From Candidatus Peregrinibacteria bacterium (GTDB lineage Bacteria; Patescibacteriota; Gracilibacteria; UBA1369), in contig OY970195.1 in assembly GCA_963708185.1 (NCBI GenBank), positions 416,001 through 480,000 of the forward strand: a stretch of DNA of 64,000 bases, given 5' to 3'. Positions 17,824 through 41,237 of this stretch are shown here, in pieces; position 1 is the first letter of the stretch, and the number at the start of each line of letters is the position of its first letter. Below the pieces are notes generated by a model. The model saw only the letters and a list, made by a program, of their open reading frames with translations, did not search any database and was not told the DNA's origin. A program made the translations under genes and the position numbers.

Positions 17824-18387
17824 ATGGACCGACTGTCCCAGCTCGGCGAAATCATCAGGGCCTGCAAAGCATGTCCTCTTTATAAAGGTACCACTCACGC
17901 CGTTCCGGGGAACGGCAGTCCGAAGGCGAAAGTTTTTTTTATCGGTGAAGCTCCGGGTCGCAACGAGGATCTCCAGGGGGAACCGTTCGTGGGGGCTGCG
18001 GGAAAGTTTTTGAATACCATGTTGGAAAGTATCGGTTTGGAACGAAAAGATGTTTTTATCACCAGCATCATCAAGCATCGTCCGCCGGAAAACCGCGACC
18101 CGAAACCTTCGGAAATCAAAGCGTGCGCTCCGTATTTGATGGAACAGCTGAAAATCATCAAGCCGAAAATTATTGTTTTGCTCGGCCGACACGCCATGGG
18201 TTGGTTTTTCCCGGGACTCGTTATTTCCGAAGCTCACGGAGTTCCTCAACAAGGAACAGGAATCTGGTCAAAATCGCCGCAACTTTTTTTGCCGCTTTAC
18301 CATCCGGCGGCGGCTTTGTATAATCCAAACATGAAGAAGGTCCATCTGAAGGATTTCAGGAAGATTTCCGAGCTTTTAAAACAATGA
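17824..18387 (+). CDS. Uracil-DNA glycosylase family 4
   Basis: C..C.L, GEAPG..ED..GEPFVGAAG, RPPENRDP, YHPAA. Confidence 0.95.
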   Translation: MDRLSQLGEIIRACKACPLYKGTTHAVPGNGSPKAKVFFIGEAPGRNEDLQGEPFVGAAGKFLNTMLESIGLERKDVFITSIIKHRPPENRDPKPSEIKACAPYLMEQLKIIKPKIIVLLGRHAMGWFFPGLVISEAHGVPQQGTGIWSKSPQLFLPLYHPAAALYNPNMKKVHLKDFRKISELLKQ

Positions 18388-18767
18388 GTATGTCTCACAA
18401 CCGTTATTTGACCATCATTGCCGCCGCCGGCGTCCTGAGTTGGGTCGCCTGGATCGTCGTGTTGAATAAGCTTGATCCGTTTGAATCCACGGGGCTTGCT
18501 TTGGGTTTGTTTTTTATCAGTCTGTTTTTTGCTTTGACCTGTACTTTCACGGTTGCCGGGTATTACTTCCGGGTTTGGCTGAACAAGAACGAGATTTTTT
18601 ACAGCCATATCAACGTGGCGTTCCGTCAGGGGATTTTGCTGACGTTGATTGCCGTGGGATGTTTGTTGTTCCAGCTTCTGGGTGTTCTGACCTGGTGGTC
18701 GGGTCTTCTTTTTATCGGAGCCGTGACTCTTGTGGAGTTTTATTTCATGGCGAAAGAGGAAGCGTAG
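18384..18767 (+). CDS. Conserved hypothetical 4-TM membrane protein
   Basis: Four hydrophobic segments; DP and FRQG motifs resemble a CPR-conserved family. Confidence 0.78.
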   Translation: MSMSHNRYLTIIAAAGVLSWVAWIVVLNKLDPFESTGLALGLFFISLFFALTCTFTVAGYYFRVWLNKNEIFYSHINVAFRQGILLTLIAVGCLLFQLLGVLTWWSGLLFIGAVTLVEFYFMAKEEA

Positions 18768-18812
18768 TTTTGCGTGAGCTGCGCTCTTGTTTTTTTGGGA
18801 TGAGTTTTTTGG

Positions 18813-18952
18813 ATAAGGGAAACAGGCGCTTCGTCTTTGTCCGTGAACCGATCCGTGAGGATGGTTCGTGGAACGAACGAAACGCCTGTCTCTACCTTGT
18901 TGCTTGTTGAATGTACAGCGCATGGAGTCCGCAACGGCGCACCATACGCTGT
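18813..18952 (-). other. Structured 3' trailer of GC-rich cassette 1 (two long hairpins)
   Basis: 16-bp stem 18819-18834/18877-18892 (two G-U on minus strand) and an 11-bp stem within 18915-18952 (one G-U). Confidence 0.7.
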
Positions 18953-18958
18953 TGACCG

Positions 18959-19507
18959 TCACGGCCCGCCGCTTGCGAAGACGGCCGGATTGCCGACCTG
19001 GGTGAGGTCGATGCGAACCGGGACCATCTTGGTCCCGTTGTGCGGCTTGGGCGTGGGCGGTGCGGTCGCGGGGGCGACGGCGGAGTCCGCGGGCTTGCCG
19101 CAATTGTCGGGACAGGGGATGTTGACCGTGATGGCGCTCGGGATGGCCGGCGCCTGCACGATCTGCTGAGGGACGCAGCGTTTCTTGCTGTTGTCCCAGA
19201 GCGTCCCGTCTCCGCAGGACTCGGGGGTCGGCTCTGCAGCGGTTTTCGTCGGATCCGCGTTGTTCGCCATGGGGGCGGACGTCGAGGCCGTCGTCGTCGA
19301 TGCGGTGCTCTTGGAAGAGCCTCCACGGAAGAGGTAGTACCCTCCGACGAGGAGCCCCAGGACCGCGAGCACTCCGAGAACCGCAGGCCACCGGCTCTTC
19401 TTGGGTGCCGGGGTTCCGAACAGGCCTTGCTGAGGGCCGGGGGGCGGGTTCGAGGGACTATTGCCCGGGTTCGTGGGCGGTGCGGGAGGCGGGTTCGAAT
19501 TCGACAT
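18959..19507 (-). CDS. GC-rich Pro/Thr-rich single-pass membrane protein with a Cys motif (CGDGTLWDNSKKRCV)
   Basis: 182-aa ORF, strong SD AAAGGAG, high GC3, one TM (WPAVLGVLAVLGLLVGGYYLF). Confidence 0.82.
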   Translation of the reverse strand: MSNSNPPPAPPTNPGNSPSNPPPGPQQGLFGTPAPKKSRWPAVLGVLAVLGLLVGGYYLFRGGSSKSTASTTTASTSAPMANNADPTKTAAEPTPESCGDGTLWDNSKKRCVPQQIVQAPAIPSAITVNIPCPDNCGKPADSAVAPATAPPTPKPHNGTKMVPVRIDLTQVGNPAVFASGGP

Positions 19508-19957
19508 GCTAAACTCCTTTGCGCCGAAGCGCGTTTCTGATGAGACGCGCCACCATGGCGCATGCGTCGTTTGTTAGCAGCACCCAAAGGGTGCGTACTC
19601 CTGCCGAGGTAGACGCGAAAACCTCTGGGCATTGTACCAAACTGCGTCAACAACTTCCCAAGCCTAGAAACTTGTTCAAAACCCAAAGAAATTGTCAGCG
19701 GCAGCCCAGTGCACTGCCCAGAGATGCGCGTCCTAAAATAAGCAACAAAGCAGAGAGAGTATCTGCCTTTCGTAATCGTCCGTGCCATGGCCTTTTTAAG
19801 GGTCTTAGCCGGACCATCATCGCTGAAGGCAGGTTGCTCTCTGCTTGTTTTGATCTTGTTGTCAATGAGCTCGATCAACACGGTTTGAGCGCCCCGAAGT
19901 TCTTTTGGGTCGCCATAACAGTGAAAGAACAGCCTTTCTGACCTATTACAGGAAAGG
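19508..19957 (-). ncRNA. Candidate ~450-nt highly structured 5' leader RNA
   Basis: Lies between the promoter and the SD; irregular ~120-nt hairpins at 19612-19732 (many G-U on minus strand) and ~19737-19860, plus several small stems. Confidence 0.55.
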
Positions 19958-19962
19958 GTGTA

Positions 19963-19991
19963 ACTATACCAAAAAAAGGAGTTTTTGTCAA
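19963..19991 (-). promoter_or_regulatory. sigma70 promoter TTGACA-N17-TATAGT (extended -10 TG)
   Basis: Near-consensus boxes with exact 17-nt spacer. Confidence 0.8.
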
Positions 19992-20027
19992 TACTCTTTG
20001 GAGTGTTTTTCCGGTACGGTGGAAAGT

Positions 20028-20753
20028 CTAGATTTGATAGGCCGGATCGTTCAAAACGGCTATCTTGCTCAACGGCCAAAGGATGACCCAGGCTTTGCCT
20101 TCGATACGGTCGAGTTTAAGGTAGGGTGTATTGCCGTTTTGGTTGCATCCGCCGCTGGTGATACTTTCCTTGAAGCAGCTTCGGGCATCAGAACTTGCGG
20201 TACGGTTATCGCCCATCACGAAGTAGTTACCTTCCGGTACTTCAAAAACGGTTTCGTCTTCGGTGTATGGATGAGTGTTGCCGGAATTTACCGCATTGAG
20301 ATAAGGTTCATCGAGTTTATAGCCGTCCGGATGTTCTTTGTTGAAGATGTAGACGTCGCCGTTTTGGAGTTTGACCGTTTCTCCGGGCAATCCGATGACG
20401 CGTTTGATGAAGAACTCCTCGTCGTTGGTTGGTGGGCGAAAGACAATGACGTCACCGCGTTTGGGCAGACCGACCTGCCATCCGAGGAAATTCTGATAGC
20501 CGAATTTGTTGACGATGATGTACTCACCGTAGCCGTGTTGGCAGGAATTATCGATGTTATTGAGCGTGTCGCACATGGAAGGCCCGTATACCTGGAACGG
20601 TGAGATCAAAAAAGTGCGGATCACGAAAACCATGGCCGCGATAATCACCAGATTGAGGAGAATATCGAGGGCGAAGAGAATCGATGCTTTATGCTTTTTG
20701 AAGAACTCCTTCACAATATCGCCGTTGGTCACCCTGGGTTGCTGTTCGTCCAT
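20028..20753 (-). CDS. lepB: Signal peptidase I
   Basis: V.GPSM (catalytic Ser), RGDVIVF, IKRVIGLPGE, YFVMGDNR..SSDAR. Confidence 0.96.
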   Translation of the reverse strand: MDEQQPRVTNGDIVKEFFKKHKASILFALDILLNLVIIAAMVFVIRTFLISPFQVYGPSMCDTLNNIDNSCQHGYGEYIIVNKFGYQNFLGWQVGLPKRGDVIVFRPPTNDEEFFIKRVIGLPGETVKLQNGDVYIFNKEHPDGYKLDEPYLNAVNSGNTHPYTEDETVFEVPEGNYFVMGDNRTASSDARSCFKESITSGGCNQNGNTPYLKLDRIEGKAWVILWPLSKIAVLNDPAYQI

Positions 20754-37447: not shown

Positions 37448-37485
37448 AGTGCTCATGGGTGAGTATATGCTCACCCATGAGCACT
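37448..37485. promoter_or_regulatory. Perfect 16-bp inverted repeat made of two TGCTCA-N4-TGAGYA boxes upstream of umuD
   Basis: AGTGCTCATGGGTGAG-TATATG-CTCACCCATGAGCACT. Confidence 0.7.
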
Positions 37486-39180: not shown

Positions 39181-39197
39181 TTCACTTCGAGCATAGG

Positions 39198-39239
39198 AAA
39201 AAGCGCCCCTGAAGTCCTATGAAGGAAGCAGCGAGGCGC
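39198..39239 (-). terminator. Intrinsic terminator of cassette B
   Basis: GCGCCTC...GGGGCGC stem followed by TTTTT; conserved in cassette A. Confidence 0.7.
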
Positions 39240-39298
39240 CGAGTTGGTGGTTATTCAATGAAGTGAAGAAAAGTGGAGATAAGAAAGCTCGGCGGGGA

Positions 39299-40050
39299 TC
39301 AGTACTGGAGCAGGAATTCCGCTCCGTTCGGGCAGGAAGACGAGAGGTTGATGTTGGGGTTGGAACCGCAAGAGATTGCGGTGTACCCAACGCTGAAGAG
39401 TTCTCCCTCCATCTGCGAGTGATCGGGAGCGGGCCCGGACTGAACGTCGGGGCGCACTTTTTCGAACACGAGACGGGGTAGGAACCGAGCGAGCTTGCCT
39501 GGGATGCGTTGTTGTTGGGAGGGTCACCGACCCATACCATCACGACGCTTCCCGCGATGGGGTGGGTGTAGAACGGTTGGGTACCGTCCTGACACGTCGA
39601 GTCGTCGGGCGACGACTCCATGTTGTAAGTCGTCCCCAACTTGTTGAGGATGACCTTGTAGCACGAGTTCGTGCACTTGAAGGTGACCGCGTTGGGCTGC
39701 GGCGGGTCGTTGCAGAGAGGGGGAGCTCCACCGGAACCACCCGTACCGCCCATACCGCCAGAGCCGCCCATGCCGCCACCGCCGGTGGAGCTGGTTGCTC
39801 CGCCCATGCCGCCAGAACCGCCCTGGCCGCCTGAAGAGCTCGTCGAGCCCCCCATGCCGCCGGAGCCGCCCTGACTGGAACTGCTGGTGGTCTTGCCACC
39901 TCCAGTATCAGAGGTGGACATTCCTCCGGAACCACCTCCGCCTTGGTTGCAGATGTCCGGACAGGTGCCGTAGGAATCCAGGACGCATGCCTGGAGGACG
40001 AAGATCCCCATGCAGGGGAGCGACGTCATCAGTAAACTTTTCAGATGCAT
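39299..40050 (-). CDS. Gly/Ser-rich putative lipoprotein with an 8-Cys C-terminal domain, copy B (frameshift near 39434)
   Basis: SD GGGAGG; lipobox-like VLQAC; GGSGGMGG linker; restoring one G (present in copy A) gives ...APDHSQMEGELF...GAEFLLQY*. Confidence 0.82.
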
Positions 40051-40117
40051 ATGACCTCCCGGGAGAAGAAAGTGCCTCCCTTGGAAATTTCGTAACTTCA
40101 TTGATGTCAAACACCAG

Positions 40118-40180
40118 TCTTTTTGTTTGTAAACCGTCAGAAACTCCTTTAGGTGTTTGCGGTTCACAAAAGCAAAAAGA
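40118..40180 (-). other. Conserved 5' leader hairpin, cassette B
   Basis: TCTTTTTG/CAAAAAGA and TTTGTGAACCG/CGGTTTACAAA stems. Confidence 0.65.
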
Positions 40181-40187
40181 GCGTTTA

Positions 40188-40216
40188 ATTATGGTGTAAA
40201 AGTGATAAAAAGTCAA
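40188..40216 (-). promoter_or_regulatory. sigma70 promoter TTGACT-N17-CATAAT
   Basis: Near-consensus boxes with 17-nt spacer. Confidence 0.72.
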
Positions 40217-40224
40217 TACATAGG

Positions 40225-40264
40225 AAAAAGCGCCCAGAAGTCCTGGTAAGGAAGCAGCGGGCGC
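40225..40264 (-). terminator. Intrinsic terminator of cassette A
   Basis: GCGCCC...GGGCGC stem followed by TTTTT. Confidence 0.7.
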
Positions 40265-40319
40265 CGGGTTGATGGTTGTACAATGAAGTAGAGCTAAGGA
40301 AGTTCGTCCGGCGCGAGAC

Positions 40320-41094
40320 CTAGTACTGGAGCAGGAAATCCGCTCCATGGGTGCAGGAAGGTGCCGAGAGGTTGATGTTGGGATTGGAACCGCACCCGAT
40401 GGTGTTGTATCCGGACGTGAAGAGTTCCGCTTCCATCTGCGAGTGATCGGGAGCGGGCCCCGGATTGAACGTCGGGGCGCACTTGACCGAACACGAGAGA
40501 GGGAACGAACCCTGGGAAACCGCCTGGATATTGTTGTTGTTCGCGGGGTCGTTGACCCACGCCATGACAACACTCCCGACGTTGGGGTGGGTGTAGAACG
40601 GTTGGGTACCGTCCTGGCACGTCGAGTCGTCGGGTGACGACTCCGCGTTGTTGGTCGTCCCCAACTTGTTGAGGATGACCTTGTAGCACGAGTTCGTGCA
40701 CTTGAAAGTGACCGCGTTGGGCTGCGGCGGGTCGTTGCAGAGGGGGAGCTCCACCGGAGCCGCCCATGCCGCCTGCACCACCCTGACCACTTGAACCGCC
40801 CATGCCGCCGGAACCCGCAGTTCCACCGGTGCCCGTTGCACCAGCTTCACCGCCCGCTCCAGCAGAGCCGCCTTGGCCGCCCATGCCGCCGAAACCCGCA
40901 GTTCCACCGGTGCCCGTTGCACCAGCTTCGCCACCGGTTCCTGCAGAGCCGCCTTGGCCGTCGCTTCCGGCCTGACCGCTCGAACCGCCGGAACCTCCGG
41001 GGCCGAACAGCGGGTCCGAATTCAGACCGCATCCCCCCGAGTAGAGGGCGGCGGCCAGGATCATCGGACAATACATGAATACCGTGAGACGCAT
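40320..41094 (-). CDS. Gly-rich putative lipoprotein with an 8-Cys C-terminal domain, copy A (2-nt frameshift near 40740)
   Basis: SD AAGGAGGAG; signal ending SGGC; Gly linker; lacks one CT unit relative to copy B at GAPPL|CNDPP; ends GADFLLQY*. Confidence 0.82.
40797..40960 (-). repeat. Two 81-nt direct repeats encoding GQGGSAG.GGEAGATGTGGTAG.GGMG
   Basis: CATGCCGCCG at 40801 and 40882; near-identical units. Confidence 0.85.
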
Positions 41095-41175
41095 CAGTTT
41101 ACTCCTCCTTTTATAGGTTATGTCCTTCTAAATGTTGAGGACAGTTTCGTTTACTTCATTGATTTCAAACATCAG

Positions 41176-41237
41176 TCTTTTCGTTTGTAGGCCGTCAAAA
41201 CTCCTGTCTATATTTGCGGCTCACAAAAGCAAAAAGA
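41176..41237 (-). other. Conserved 5' leader hairpin, cassette A
   Basis: Same stems as cassette B, with one A-U to G-C compensatory change and one mismatch. Confidence 0.62.

Follow-up and report, generated by a model that had tools for sequence, protein, structure and literature searches.

The 5' and 3' flanks of rRNA operons pair to form processing stalks, which are cut by RNase III. In synthetic toehold switches, a free toehold lies beside a stem, and a longer complementary invader displaces one strand of that stem. Within a single mRNA, pairing between the two untranslated regions (UTRs) has been reported for hbs of Bacillus subtilis, where it spans 14 nt; the 5' arm comes shortly after a hairpin of the 5' UTR and the 3' arm shortly before the terminator, and the compensatory mutants described there indicate that the pairing restricts RNase Y cleavage (Braun, Durand and Condon 2017, PMC5737220). 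The 3' UTR of Staphylococcus aureus icaR is described as pairing with its own 5' UTR into double-stranded RNA, with a 3'-UTR motif that prevents initiation by pairing with the Shine-Dalgarno region (Ruiz de los Mozos et al. 2013, PMC3868564). Intramolecular pairing of ribosome-binding sites over hundreds of nucleotides is also reported in vivo for bacterial mRNAs (Gill et al. 2025 preprint, PMC12697547). A literature search for Peregrinibacteria or Peribacteria together with UTR or noncoding RNA found nothing relevant.

The locus described here belongs to an uncultured, Peribacteria-type bacterium and lies on the minus strand of the window, the whole stretch of 64,000 nucleotides that was analysed. 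Two complementary arms (19756-19740 and 18905-18889) flank the open reading frame (ORF) 18959-19507 within one transcription unit. A sigma-70-type promoter was predicted by consensus at 19963-19991 (TTGACA-17-TATAGT, 11/12 consensus matches plus a TG extension), which would place the start of transcription at about 19956. Of the 14 orthologous loci, 13 gave a pattern match to TTGAC-N17-19-T/G,A/T,NNN,T upstream of the leader; in the remaining one (G020) this arrangement was recognised by eye. The structured 5' UTR of about 450 nt (19508-19956) is 68 to 81% conserved in congeners by BLAST of the flanks, whereas in the same comparison the ORF could not be aligned at the DNA level. In the genus alignment of the 5' UTR (A1), RNAalifold found 97 pairs, 13 of them with compensatory changes. 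A conserved box, YTTGA(A/C)AA (19860-19865), lies shortly 5' of the leader hairpin, at most 30 nt from its stem P1 in 12 of 14 leaders. This hairpin, C (19748-19846), consists of P1 (19846-19837/19757-19748), P2 (19832-19826/19769-19763) and a variable apical part. The leader arm of the long-range helix, Y (19740-19756), shares 19748-19756 with the 3' strand of P1, and 19740-19747 is the predicted single-stranded toehold between hairpin C and the next leader domain. This next domain, D (19621-19725), is a long irregular hairpin with a closing stem at 19723-19709/19637-19623 (inverted repeat I12), and several of its pairs are compensatory (columns 303-408 of A1). The Shine-Dalgarno sequence AAGGAG (19514-19519) lies 6 nt 5' of the ATG at 19507-19505 and is kept in the genus alignment. 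Downstream of the ORF, the trailer arm X' (18889-18905) lies in the 3' UTR, 53 nt past the stop codon, and the predicted terminator (18807-18892) consists of a 17-bp stem with three G-U pairs (18892-18876/18835-18819) and a pyrimidine-rich tail. Positions 18889-18892 belong to both the terminator hairpin and the trailer arm.

The ORF (P0001) encodes 182 amino acids, with a Pro-rich N-terminus, one hydrophobic helix, a Ser/Thr/Ala-rich linker and four Cys residues. It is homologous to the congeneric ORFs at 35 to 37% identity. The Pfam search gave no match above cut-off, only CBM_14 below threshold (17.1 versus 22.1 bits), and the NCBIfam search gave no match. As judged from its sequence, the product is a small, rapidly evolving protein predicted to be membrane anchored. 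The GC content of the ORF is 0.68, and its GC3 is 0.83. The genome (G000), at 49.8% GC, contains 82 windows of at least 60% GC, and GC-rich islands are therefore not special there.

The plus-strand sequences of the arms are TCTCTACCTTGTTGCTT (18889-18905) and AAGCAACAAAGCAGAGA (19740-19756). The 17-bp long-range pairing proposed in the initial annotation was reproduced, with all 17 minus-strand positions pairing consecutively, and the two DNA-level mismatches are indeed wobbles on the transcribed strand (G-U and U-G on the minus strand). A repeat search of the window returned the arms as inverted repeat I3 (18886-18908/19737-19759; 23 nt, 83% complementary). Both local partners that had been assigned to the arms were also recovered. 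Positions 19837-19846 (transcript AAGCAGAGAG) pair with 19748-19757, overlapping the leader arm by 9 nt, and 18819-18835 pairs with 18876-18892 in the terminator stem, overlapping the trailer arm by 4 nt. When the 1142-nt transcript was shuffled 300 times by dinucleotides, no shuffle (0/300) contained a helix of 17 bp or more with two or fewer G-U pairs, and 7 contained one of 15 bp or more. When the whole window was scanned on both strands with a span of at most 1300, a second long-range helix of 17 bp with two G-U pairs was found at 38106-38090/37265-37249. Because of this second helix, the helix alone is weak evidence and lies within chance for a 64-kb scan. The evidence that the helix is real comes from comparison with the sequences of relatives.

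The family set comprised 14 orthologous loci from eight genera, and the genus set used for the helix columns comprised five distinct sequences. A covariance model of the leader arm and domain D (R1) gave one match per genome in all five genomes of genus g1 (G000-G004) and a single weak match outside it, in G008; R1 is nearly confined to the genus because the genus-specific domain D dominates the model. Loci in other genera were located by synteny with a neighbouring 127-aa protein, and this search returned no locus in G017, G025 and G028. G001, with a leader present but its trailer arm lost to a contig end, was dropped or kept as a partial row; G006 is partial, with 291 nt available downstream at the contig end. 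G005 was left out of the 14 since it has a leader but no convincing trailer arm. Its leader hairpin and arm are present, but the best duplex reaches only -16.3 kcal/mol, and its site falls within the repeats that separate the end of the ORF from the terminator, not beside the latter. A pattern scan of genome contigs gave four matches, apparently the four known congeners. The scan of metagenomes gave three, of which L017 and L019 are near-identical and L018 is an unrelated chance match. Rfam 15 had no match at E ≤ 1 within 18700-20100, and at the gathering score its only match in the whole window was a tRNA.

Within the genus, 82 of 83 cells in the helix columns were paired, compared with 37 to 60% when the 3' partner was slid by one to three columns as a control. 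Two pairs had changed on both sides (U-A to C-G and G-C to A-U), and all four one-sided changes stayed paired as wobbles on the transcribed strand. Across the family, RNAduplex was run with the Y window against everything more than 300 nt downstream, and the best partner was the terminator-adjacent site in all 14 loci (dG, -19.6 to -42.1). The long-range helix measures 15 to 19 bp, with a single C.A mismatch in G008. Between genera the arms also differ by indels. The distal half of the leader arm is unrelated between genera, and a matching trailer follows each version, for example UUCGCGAUC/GAUCGCGAA in G024 and CUUCGCUUCAAC/GUUGAAGCGAAG in G021. In 13 of 14 rows, the cognate duplex was more stable than any formed with a trailer from another genus, by 3.6 to 14.9 kcal/mol; over the 14 rows, mean non-cognate energies were -11.4 to -18.0 and cognate energies -19.6 to -34.0. 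In G012 and G021, Y changes from G to A, and the 5' strand of P1 and the trailer both change from C to U.

Promoter, leader, ORF and trailer share one orientation in all 14 loci, the leader arm has its start at or within the 3' strand of hairpin C in all 14, and the downstream hairpin starts 3 to 6 nt before the 3' end of X' in all 14, within the rough hairpin limits set by the script. The arms have co-evolved, and the pairing itself is therefore under selection. The comparison shows the complementarity to be a selected RNA-level feature of the predicted 5' and 3' UTRs. The preference of the initial annotation for RNA structure over a DNA inverted repeat was borne out by the compensatory changes in the genus and by the turnover of the distal half with matching trailers in eight genera. 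Its argument from the strand on which the G-U pairs occur held inside the genus, where every one-sided change is a wobble on the transcribed strand. Outside the genus it adds little, since the helices there are almost purely Watson-Crick. The sense duplex was more stable than the antisense duplex in 9 of 14 loci, and wobble strand asymmetry was set aside as a family-wide test.

The hairpin with which the long-range helix competes is conserved as well. RNAalifold of 14 sequences from eight genera gave 17 pairs for hairpin C, seven of them with both sides changed and pairing kept, and in partition-function folds of the leader only, the core of Y paired upstream with a probability of 0.85 to 1.00 in 14 of 14. 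The leader arm overlaps P1 by 11 to 16 nt and leaves a free toehold of 4 to 9 nt (14 loci). The proximal half of the 5' arm is the 3' strand of P1, and the two helices therefore exclude each other. Y:X' was the stronger helix in all 14 loci (-19.6 to -32.9 versus -13.9 to -19.3 for P1). In co-folds of the leader with the 3' UTR, the arm paired with the 3' UTR in part (mean probability, 0.23 to 0.82), and P1 often persisted; the closed form may therefore involve the toehold only. Hairpin C and the U-rich stretch that follows it were flagged as terminator-like on the minus strand (19769-19747). With respect to a role of this hairpin as an attenuator, its apical part measures 50 to 100 nt, and the tail after it is not U-rich in G002.

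The initial annotation had also suggested a switch that closes only when the full transcript has been made. Both mutually exclusive helices are conserved and covary, and the anatomy can therefore fairly be read as an exchange that becomes possible only after the 3' UTR has been made. In thermodynamic modelling, Shine-Dalgarno accessibility did not change consistently. The unpaired probability of the Shine-Dalgarno sequence was 0.00 to 0.66 with the 3' UTR and 0.00 to 0.67 without it, with no consistent direction among the 14 sequences. For the 5' end, predicted pairing with either the 5' strand of P1 or the Shine-Dalgarno region mostly did not exceed what shuffled controls gave, and no excess was consistent across the 14 sequences. 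A relay in which the freed P1 5' strand captures the 5'-terminal pyrimidine stretch and so frees the Shine-Dalgarno sequence was considered and dropped, being unsupported by the co-folds and the shuffled controls.

The reading we prefer, with a probability of roughly one half, is that Y and X' of one mRNA undergo strand exchange and that complete transcripts are thereby protected, as in hbs, or processed differently. During transcription, P1 would form first and leave 4 to 9 nt of single-stranded toehold between two hairpins. The emerging 3' UTR would then pair with the toehold and could displace the 5' strand of P1, and the product would be a helix of 15 to 19 bp abutting the terminator. By analogy with B. 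subtilis hbs, this helix would cover the single-stranded leader linker and the stretch adjoining the terminator. These would be natural entry sites for RNase Y-type cleavage and 3' decay, so that a complete transcript might be more stable than an incomplete one or be processed in another way. The genome contains two matches to RNase Y (116.3 and 50 bits), as well as RNase J (579.9 bits) and RNase III (139.1 bits versus a cut-off of 35); no RNase E/G was found in it. We infer that the output of the UTR pairing would most likely be the masking of complete transcripts from nucleases, or alternatively a site for RNase III. Pure nuclease masking leaves the trailer's copying of the P1 5' strand unexplained.

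If RNase III were to act on the locus, the helix of the full transcript would be cut in both arms, and the first approximately 200 nt of the leader and the terminator would be removed, so that the mRNA would be matured or destabilised. The helix directly abuts the terminator stem, which could give a longer coaxial duplex, the genome has an RNase III gene, and the 5'/3'-UTR pairing of icaR is reported to make an RNase III substrate (PMC3868564). However, the helix falls short of two full turns and frequently has a bulge, and it excludes the Shine-Dalgarno region, unlike that of icaR; we consider this outcome possible but rather unlikely. Less probable again is control of translation, in which the freed purine-rich 5' strand of P1 would re-wire the leader and change how accessible the ribosome-binding site is, restricting translation to complete transcripts. 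Both competing helices are conserved, in the genus RNAalifold structure the Shine-Dalgarno sequence is paired with a run of pyrimidines close to the 5' end (columns 36-40/568-572), and ribosome-binding-site pairing in B. subtilis is reported to act over hundreds of nucleotides (PMC12697547). Against this stand the results for the 14 sequences described above, in which Shine-Dalgarno accessibility was about equal with and without the 3' UTR and pairing of the 5' end mostly stayed within the shuffled-control range.

Covariation cannot separate pairing in cis from pairing in trans, and a short RNA ending after hairpin C, where the sequence looks terminator-like (19769-19747), or whole mRNAs might pair with the 3' UTR of other transcript copies. 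The arms lie on a single transcription unit in 14 of 14 loci, though, some relatives such as G002 lack a U-rich tail after hairpin C, and a short RNA ending at that tail would miss most of the toehold, which makes pairing in trans improbable. It is very improbable that the arms act as DNA, either as inverted repeats at which site-specific inversion would flip the ORF against its promoter (phase variation) or as terminal repeats of a mobile cassette. The repeats do flank a surface-protein ORF with the promoter outside them, the locus is variable in the family, and in the other genera the arms come close to perfect Watson-Crick repeats. Yet none of the 14 loci was inverted, and L017 and L019 from the metagenomes share this orientation; no match to Phage_integrase or Resolvase was found in the window, the nearest of those in the genome (2 + 2) being about 287 kb away. 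Bulges and wobbles are tolerated in the helix, with G-U kept on the transcribed strand in 4/4 one-sided genus changes, and the proximal half of the arm is also part of a covarying local RNA hairpin. Cassette-less genomes also lack the promoter, hairpin C and the terminator, although these elements are not enclosed by the repeats. Chance complementarity without function, to which the second 17-bp helix with two G-U pairs in the window would lend some colour, is contradicted by conservation, compensatory change and cognate specificity over eight genera, and its probability is negligible.

A broader proposal is put forward tentatively, as we consider it less likely than not. The locus may be a natural sensor of transcript completion, in which a conserved chassis of promoter, leader hairpin, toehold, trailer arm and terminator lets the 3' UTR invade the leader hairpin only after completion, by toehold-mediated strand exchange. 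This chassis would carry different, fast-evolving, GC-rich surface-protein ORFs across an ultra-small bacterial family, and the same logic in other sequences would apply to two cassettes at 39-41 kb. These had been described as alike in architecture and unrelated in sequence, which is correct as far as they were compared.

At this locus, natural evolution has repeatedly supplied compensatory-mutation evidence, in that the arms turn over completely from genus to genus while complementarity stays and the competing helix covaries. The locus provides a testable model of a cis-acting strand-exchange device in mRNA, and it shows that long-range mRNA interactions are discoverable by comparison alone in uncultured lineages. 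The device is linked to a variable surface-protein locus of Peribacteria, in which gene regulation is almost unknown. If its output is control of decay, the hbs mechanism would extend beyond Firmicutes; if it is translation or processing, this would be a new kind of control.

Compared with rRNA processing stalks, the locus would share the pairing of the flanks of a long functional RNA only after the whole unit has been transcribed, but the RNA here is an mRNA and the helix is shorter. As in toehold switches, the invading helix is the stronger one in all 14 loci by computation, but this is a natural system, whose invader would be the molecule's own 3' UTR. With icaR as reported, it shares the pairing of a 3' UTR with its own 5' UTR, predicted in this case, and an RNase III gene is present in the genome; in contrast to the icaR pairing described, the arm lies about 220 to 230 nt upstream of the Shine-Dalgarno sequence and excludes it. 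The pairings reported by Gill et al. involve short repressing sequences resembling anti-Shine-Dalgarno sequences (PMC12697547), whereas the covarying UTR arms here lie away from the ribosome-binding site.

Anatomically, the Y:X' interaction is closest to the long-range interaction of hbs. It differs from hbs, as that system is described, in that the 5' arm overlaps a conserved competing hairpin by 11 to 16 nt and leaves a toehold, in that the leader is much longer (194 to 491 nt), and in that the gene encodes a fast-evolving membrane protein and not a nucleoid protein. The support also differs, consisting of mutants for hbs and of natural covariation in eight genera here, where the interaction is known from sequence alone. 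Among the features shared with hbs is the enzyme set of the host, in which RNase Y and RNase J are present and RNase E/G is absent. In common with the published hbs structure, the pairing is contiguous, over 14 nt in hbs and 15 to 19 bp here, and in all 14 loci a stable hairpin immediately precedes the 5' arm and the terminator immediately follows the 3' arm.

The ORF of cassette 1 (18959-19507, minus strand, 182 aa) lies between the leader and trailer arms. It has a GC content of 0.68 and a GC3 of 0.83, and its product has a Pro-rich N-terminus, a single hydrophobic helix and 4 Cys; a search of Pfam gave nothing above the cut-off, and NCBIfam gave no match. A near-consensus promoter (TTGACA-17-TATAGT, 11 of 12 matches) is predicted at 19991-19963 on the minus strand and follows the stop codon of the gene for a signal peptidase (Peptidase_S26, 20028-20753). 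At the other end, a long predicted terminator hairpin of 17 bp (18892-18876 with 18835-18819, minus strand) marks the transcript 3' end. It faces the terminator of a convergent gene for a 127-aa membrane protein (18384-18767). By the positions of promoter and terminator, both arms belong to a single transcript, predicted to be about 1.14 kb long and to start with a 5' UTR of some 450 nt. The genome holding the window (G000) is a single contig of 1.437 Mb, whose largest GC-rich stretches (1.5 kb and 3.9 kb, 63-64% GC) are found outside the window at 573582-580460.

The trailer arm (18889-18905, TCTCTACCTTGTTGCTT in plus-strand letters) and the leader arm (19740-19756, AAGCAACAAAGCAGAGA) were claimed in the initial annotation to pair fully. 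On the minus strand, all 17 positions pair in an unbroken run, two of them as G-U, and a repeat search recovered the arms as a 23-nt inverted repeat with 83% complementarity. The local partners proposed for both arms are also real. The stem P1 (19846-19837 with 19757-19748) has 9 nt in common with the leader arm, and the terminator stem overlaps the trailer arm by 4 nt. Among 300 dinucleotide shuffles of the transcript, none contained a helix this long (17 bp or more, two G-U pairs or fewer). As a chance control, the entire window was scanned too, and a second 17-bp helix with two G-U pairs turned up (38106-38090 with 37265-37249, minus strand, span 857 nt), so that the cassette 1 helix by itself is unconvincing.

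Other structures were observed in the window. In each of two tandem GC-rich cassettes on the minus strand (39185-40175 and 40225-41225), leader and trailer are complementary along some 100 nt (core CAATGAAGT/ACTTCATTG), with RNAduplex energies of -56.4 and -40.6 kcal/mol. As stated initially, these stems are unrelated in sequence to cassette 1; the theme of leader-trailer pairing is alike. Each tandem cassette contains two overlapping long frames within 39217-41094 on the minus strand (for instance 40294-41094 with 40320-40934, and 39217-40167 with 39540-39935); possible causes are a frameshift, an assembly error and a frame that is an artefact of high GC. A loopless, near-perfect palindromic hairpin of 19 bp at 37448-37485 probably serves to terminate transcription between genes that are convergent or in tandem.

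DNA similarity to 18780-20000 was detected in all four congeners (genus g1) among 61 genomes searched. The flanks of the ORF, including the entire leader and trailer, are 68-81% identical in the congeners, and the ORF is unalignable at the DNA level. In one congener (G001), the leader is present and the trailer is cut off by the contig end. Metagenome contigs added a further g1 species (L017 and L019, near-identical); another metagenome match, L018, was due to chance. In the alignment of five distinct full g1 transcripts, which are non-independent kin with most of the arm in common, the 17 helix pairs were intact in 82 of 83 cells. Two pairs were changed on both sides and four on one side, all of the latter still forming wobble or Watson-Crick pairs. 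When the 3' partner was slid by 1-3 columns as a control, 37-60% of cells were paired. In the G003 locus (L003), the ORF ortholog has a stop 12 codons after the ATG beside the Shine-Dalgarno, and the conserved Cys-rich N-terminal motif goes on in a different frame; this is either a frameshift or an assembly error.

At the family level, the convergent 127-aa protein is encoded in 34 of 36 genomes, and the interval from its gene to that of the signal peptidase varies (examples include L033, L034, L040 and L042). The interval is without the cassette in G010, G029, G013 and G034. In several genomes, a lipoprotein-like gene of ordinary GC fills it; the product has a coiled-coil tail, and the leader is short and unstructured. 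The remaining genomes have a GC-rich ORF with the local leader hairpin (hairpin C). The comparison set consisted of 14 loci with both UTRs from eight genera: g1 (G000, G002, G003, G004 and the metagenome species), g5 (G008), g9 (G012), g12 (G015, G030, G035), g17 (G020), g18 (G021), g21 (G024) and g23 (G026). The limits of the terminator hairpins across these loci are rough. In 14 of 14, of all downstream positions beyond 300 nt, RNAduplex ranked the stretch immediately 5' of the terminator as the best partner for the arm window. Within the arm, the proximal half (CUCUCUG/A...) is conserved among loci. The distal half bears no relation from one genus to the next, nor even among the g12 loci, and the trailer matches each version. 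The cognate duplex was stronger than that with every other-genus trailer in 13 of 14 rows, G008 being a near tie. The homolog search for covariation proposed initially gave compensatory changes in g1 and cognate matching in eight genera. G005 is an exception, with promoter, hairpin C and arm present and no convincing trailer arm found. Its locus (L063) has, after the ORF stop and ahead of the terminator, about 900 nt of ~120-nt repeats containing GTCCC..GGGAC hairpins (around 1130-2050, transcript strand). At 7 of the 14 loci, the 25 nt preceding the trailer arm contain an AAGGA/AGGAG Shine-Dalgarno-like motif. The ORFs of the 14 loci have a GC of 0.55-0.75 and a GC3 of 0.57-0.92, versus a leader GC of 0.32-0.55, the AT-rich G008 included. 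The encoded proteins sort into weakly related groups, at least two in number. An N-terminal hydrophobic helix and C-terminal parts with Cys are features of nearly all of them, and those of G008 and G024 have a lipobox-like N-terminal signal.

The predicted leader fold (RNAalifold, six leaders) has 97 pairs, 13 with compensatory changes, and includes a long domain D and hairpin C, in which the 3' strand of P1 overlaps the arm. No Rfam family matched the leader. With a covariance model of arm and domain D, each g1 genome gave a single copy and G008 a weak match, together 6 of 36 family genomes. The G008 match is a syntenic cassette in a much AT-richer genome, with the same hairpin C, a different hairpin replacing domain D, the leader-trailer helix again present, and an unrelated GC-rich, lipoprotein-like ORF. 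Across the 14 sequences, 7 of the 17 predicted pairs of hairpin C were changed on both sides. In G012 and G021, the arm has A for G, and both the 5' strand of P1 and the trailer have U for C, indicating that one arm nucleotide is matched by two alternative partners. A conserved box YTTGA(A/C)AA (19860-19865 in the window) precedes hairpin C at a short distance in 12 of the 14 leaders.

At the 14 loci, the 3' strand of P1 overlaps the long-range helix by 11-16 nt, and 4-9 nt are left free of P1 as a toehold. In all 14, P1 (-13.9 to -19.3 kcal/mol) is less stable than the long-range duplex (-19.6 to -32.9 kcal/mol). P1 had a probability of 0.85-1.00 in leader-only folds; in co-folds of leader plus 3' UTR, the mean pairing probability of arm and 3' UTR was 0.23-0.82 and P1 was often retained. 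The models therefore put both states near each other in energy. The comparison shows that pairing of the leader linker with the pre-terminator 3' UTR is under selection and mutually exclusive with a local hairpin that is itself selected.

At 14 of 14 loci, the arms are enclosed by the transcription unit and their orientation is unchanged. This placement, the covarying hairpin sharing the arm, the tolerance of bulges and the g1 wobbles argue that the complementarity is an RNA feature. The initial annotation had drawn the same conclusion from G-U pairs specific to the transcribed strand. That argument holds inside g1, where all one-sided changes keep a wobble on the transcribed strand, but it adds little beyond g1, as only 9 of 14 loci favour the sense duplex over the antisense in stability; the G008 helix has one C.A mismatch. 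Of the three features of an invertible DNA switch, the flanking inverted repeats are present and the other two are lacking: none of the 14 loci is inverted, and there is no recombinase gene within about 287 kb. Evidence also stands against the arms being the ends of a mobile cassette, since cassette-less genomes also lack the promoter, hairpin C and terminator, all of which are external to the repeats.

For the RNA exchange, P1 would form co-transcriptionally; the 3' UTR would nucleate later on the toehold and could displace the 5' strand of P1. The proposal of a switch that closes after the full transcript is made is partly supported, by helices that are mutually exclusive and selected. No support was found for a translational switch, as Shine-Dalgarno accessibility was the same in co-folds and pairings of the 5' end were mostly inside the shuffled-control range.

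Among known systems, B. subtilis hbs (PMC5737220) has a 14-nt sequence just 3' of a 5'-UTR hairpin that pairs just 5' of the terminator, restricting RNase Y cleavage of the leader and slowing the 3' pathway, as compensatory mutants showed. Cassette 1 agrees on both positional features tested. By this analogy, the favoured output would be the same restriction of RNase Y cleavage and slowing of the 3' pathway. G000 encodes RNase Y (two matches), RNase J and RNase III, and a genome search found RNase E/G absent. Alternatively, the helix might be an RNase III site as in S. aureus icaR (PMC3868564), but the Shine-Dalgarno region lies outside the helix and the defining feature of the icaR type is lacking. 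For long-range UTR interactions in bacterial mRNA, the literature search led to hbs and to a 2025 preprint (PMC12697547) in which the ribosome-binding site is paired over a long range. A literature search on UTRs or noncoding RNA in Peregrinibacteria or Peribacteria gave nothing relevant. Compared with these systems, the layout of competing hairpin and toehold, the depth of natural covariation over eight genera, the occurrence in Peribacteria and the association with a variable, GC-rich surface-protein locus are new.
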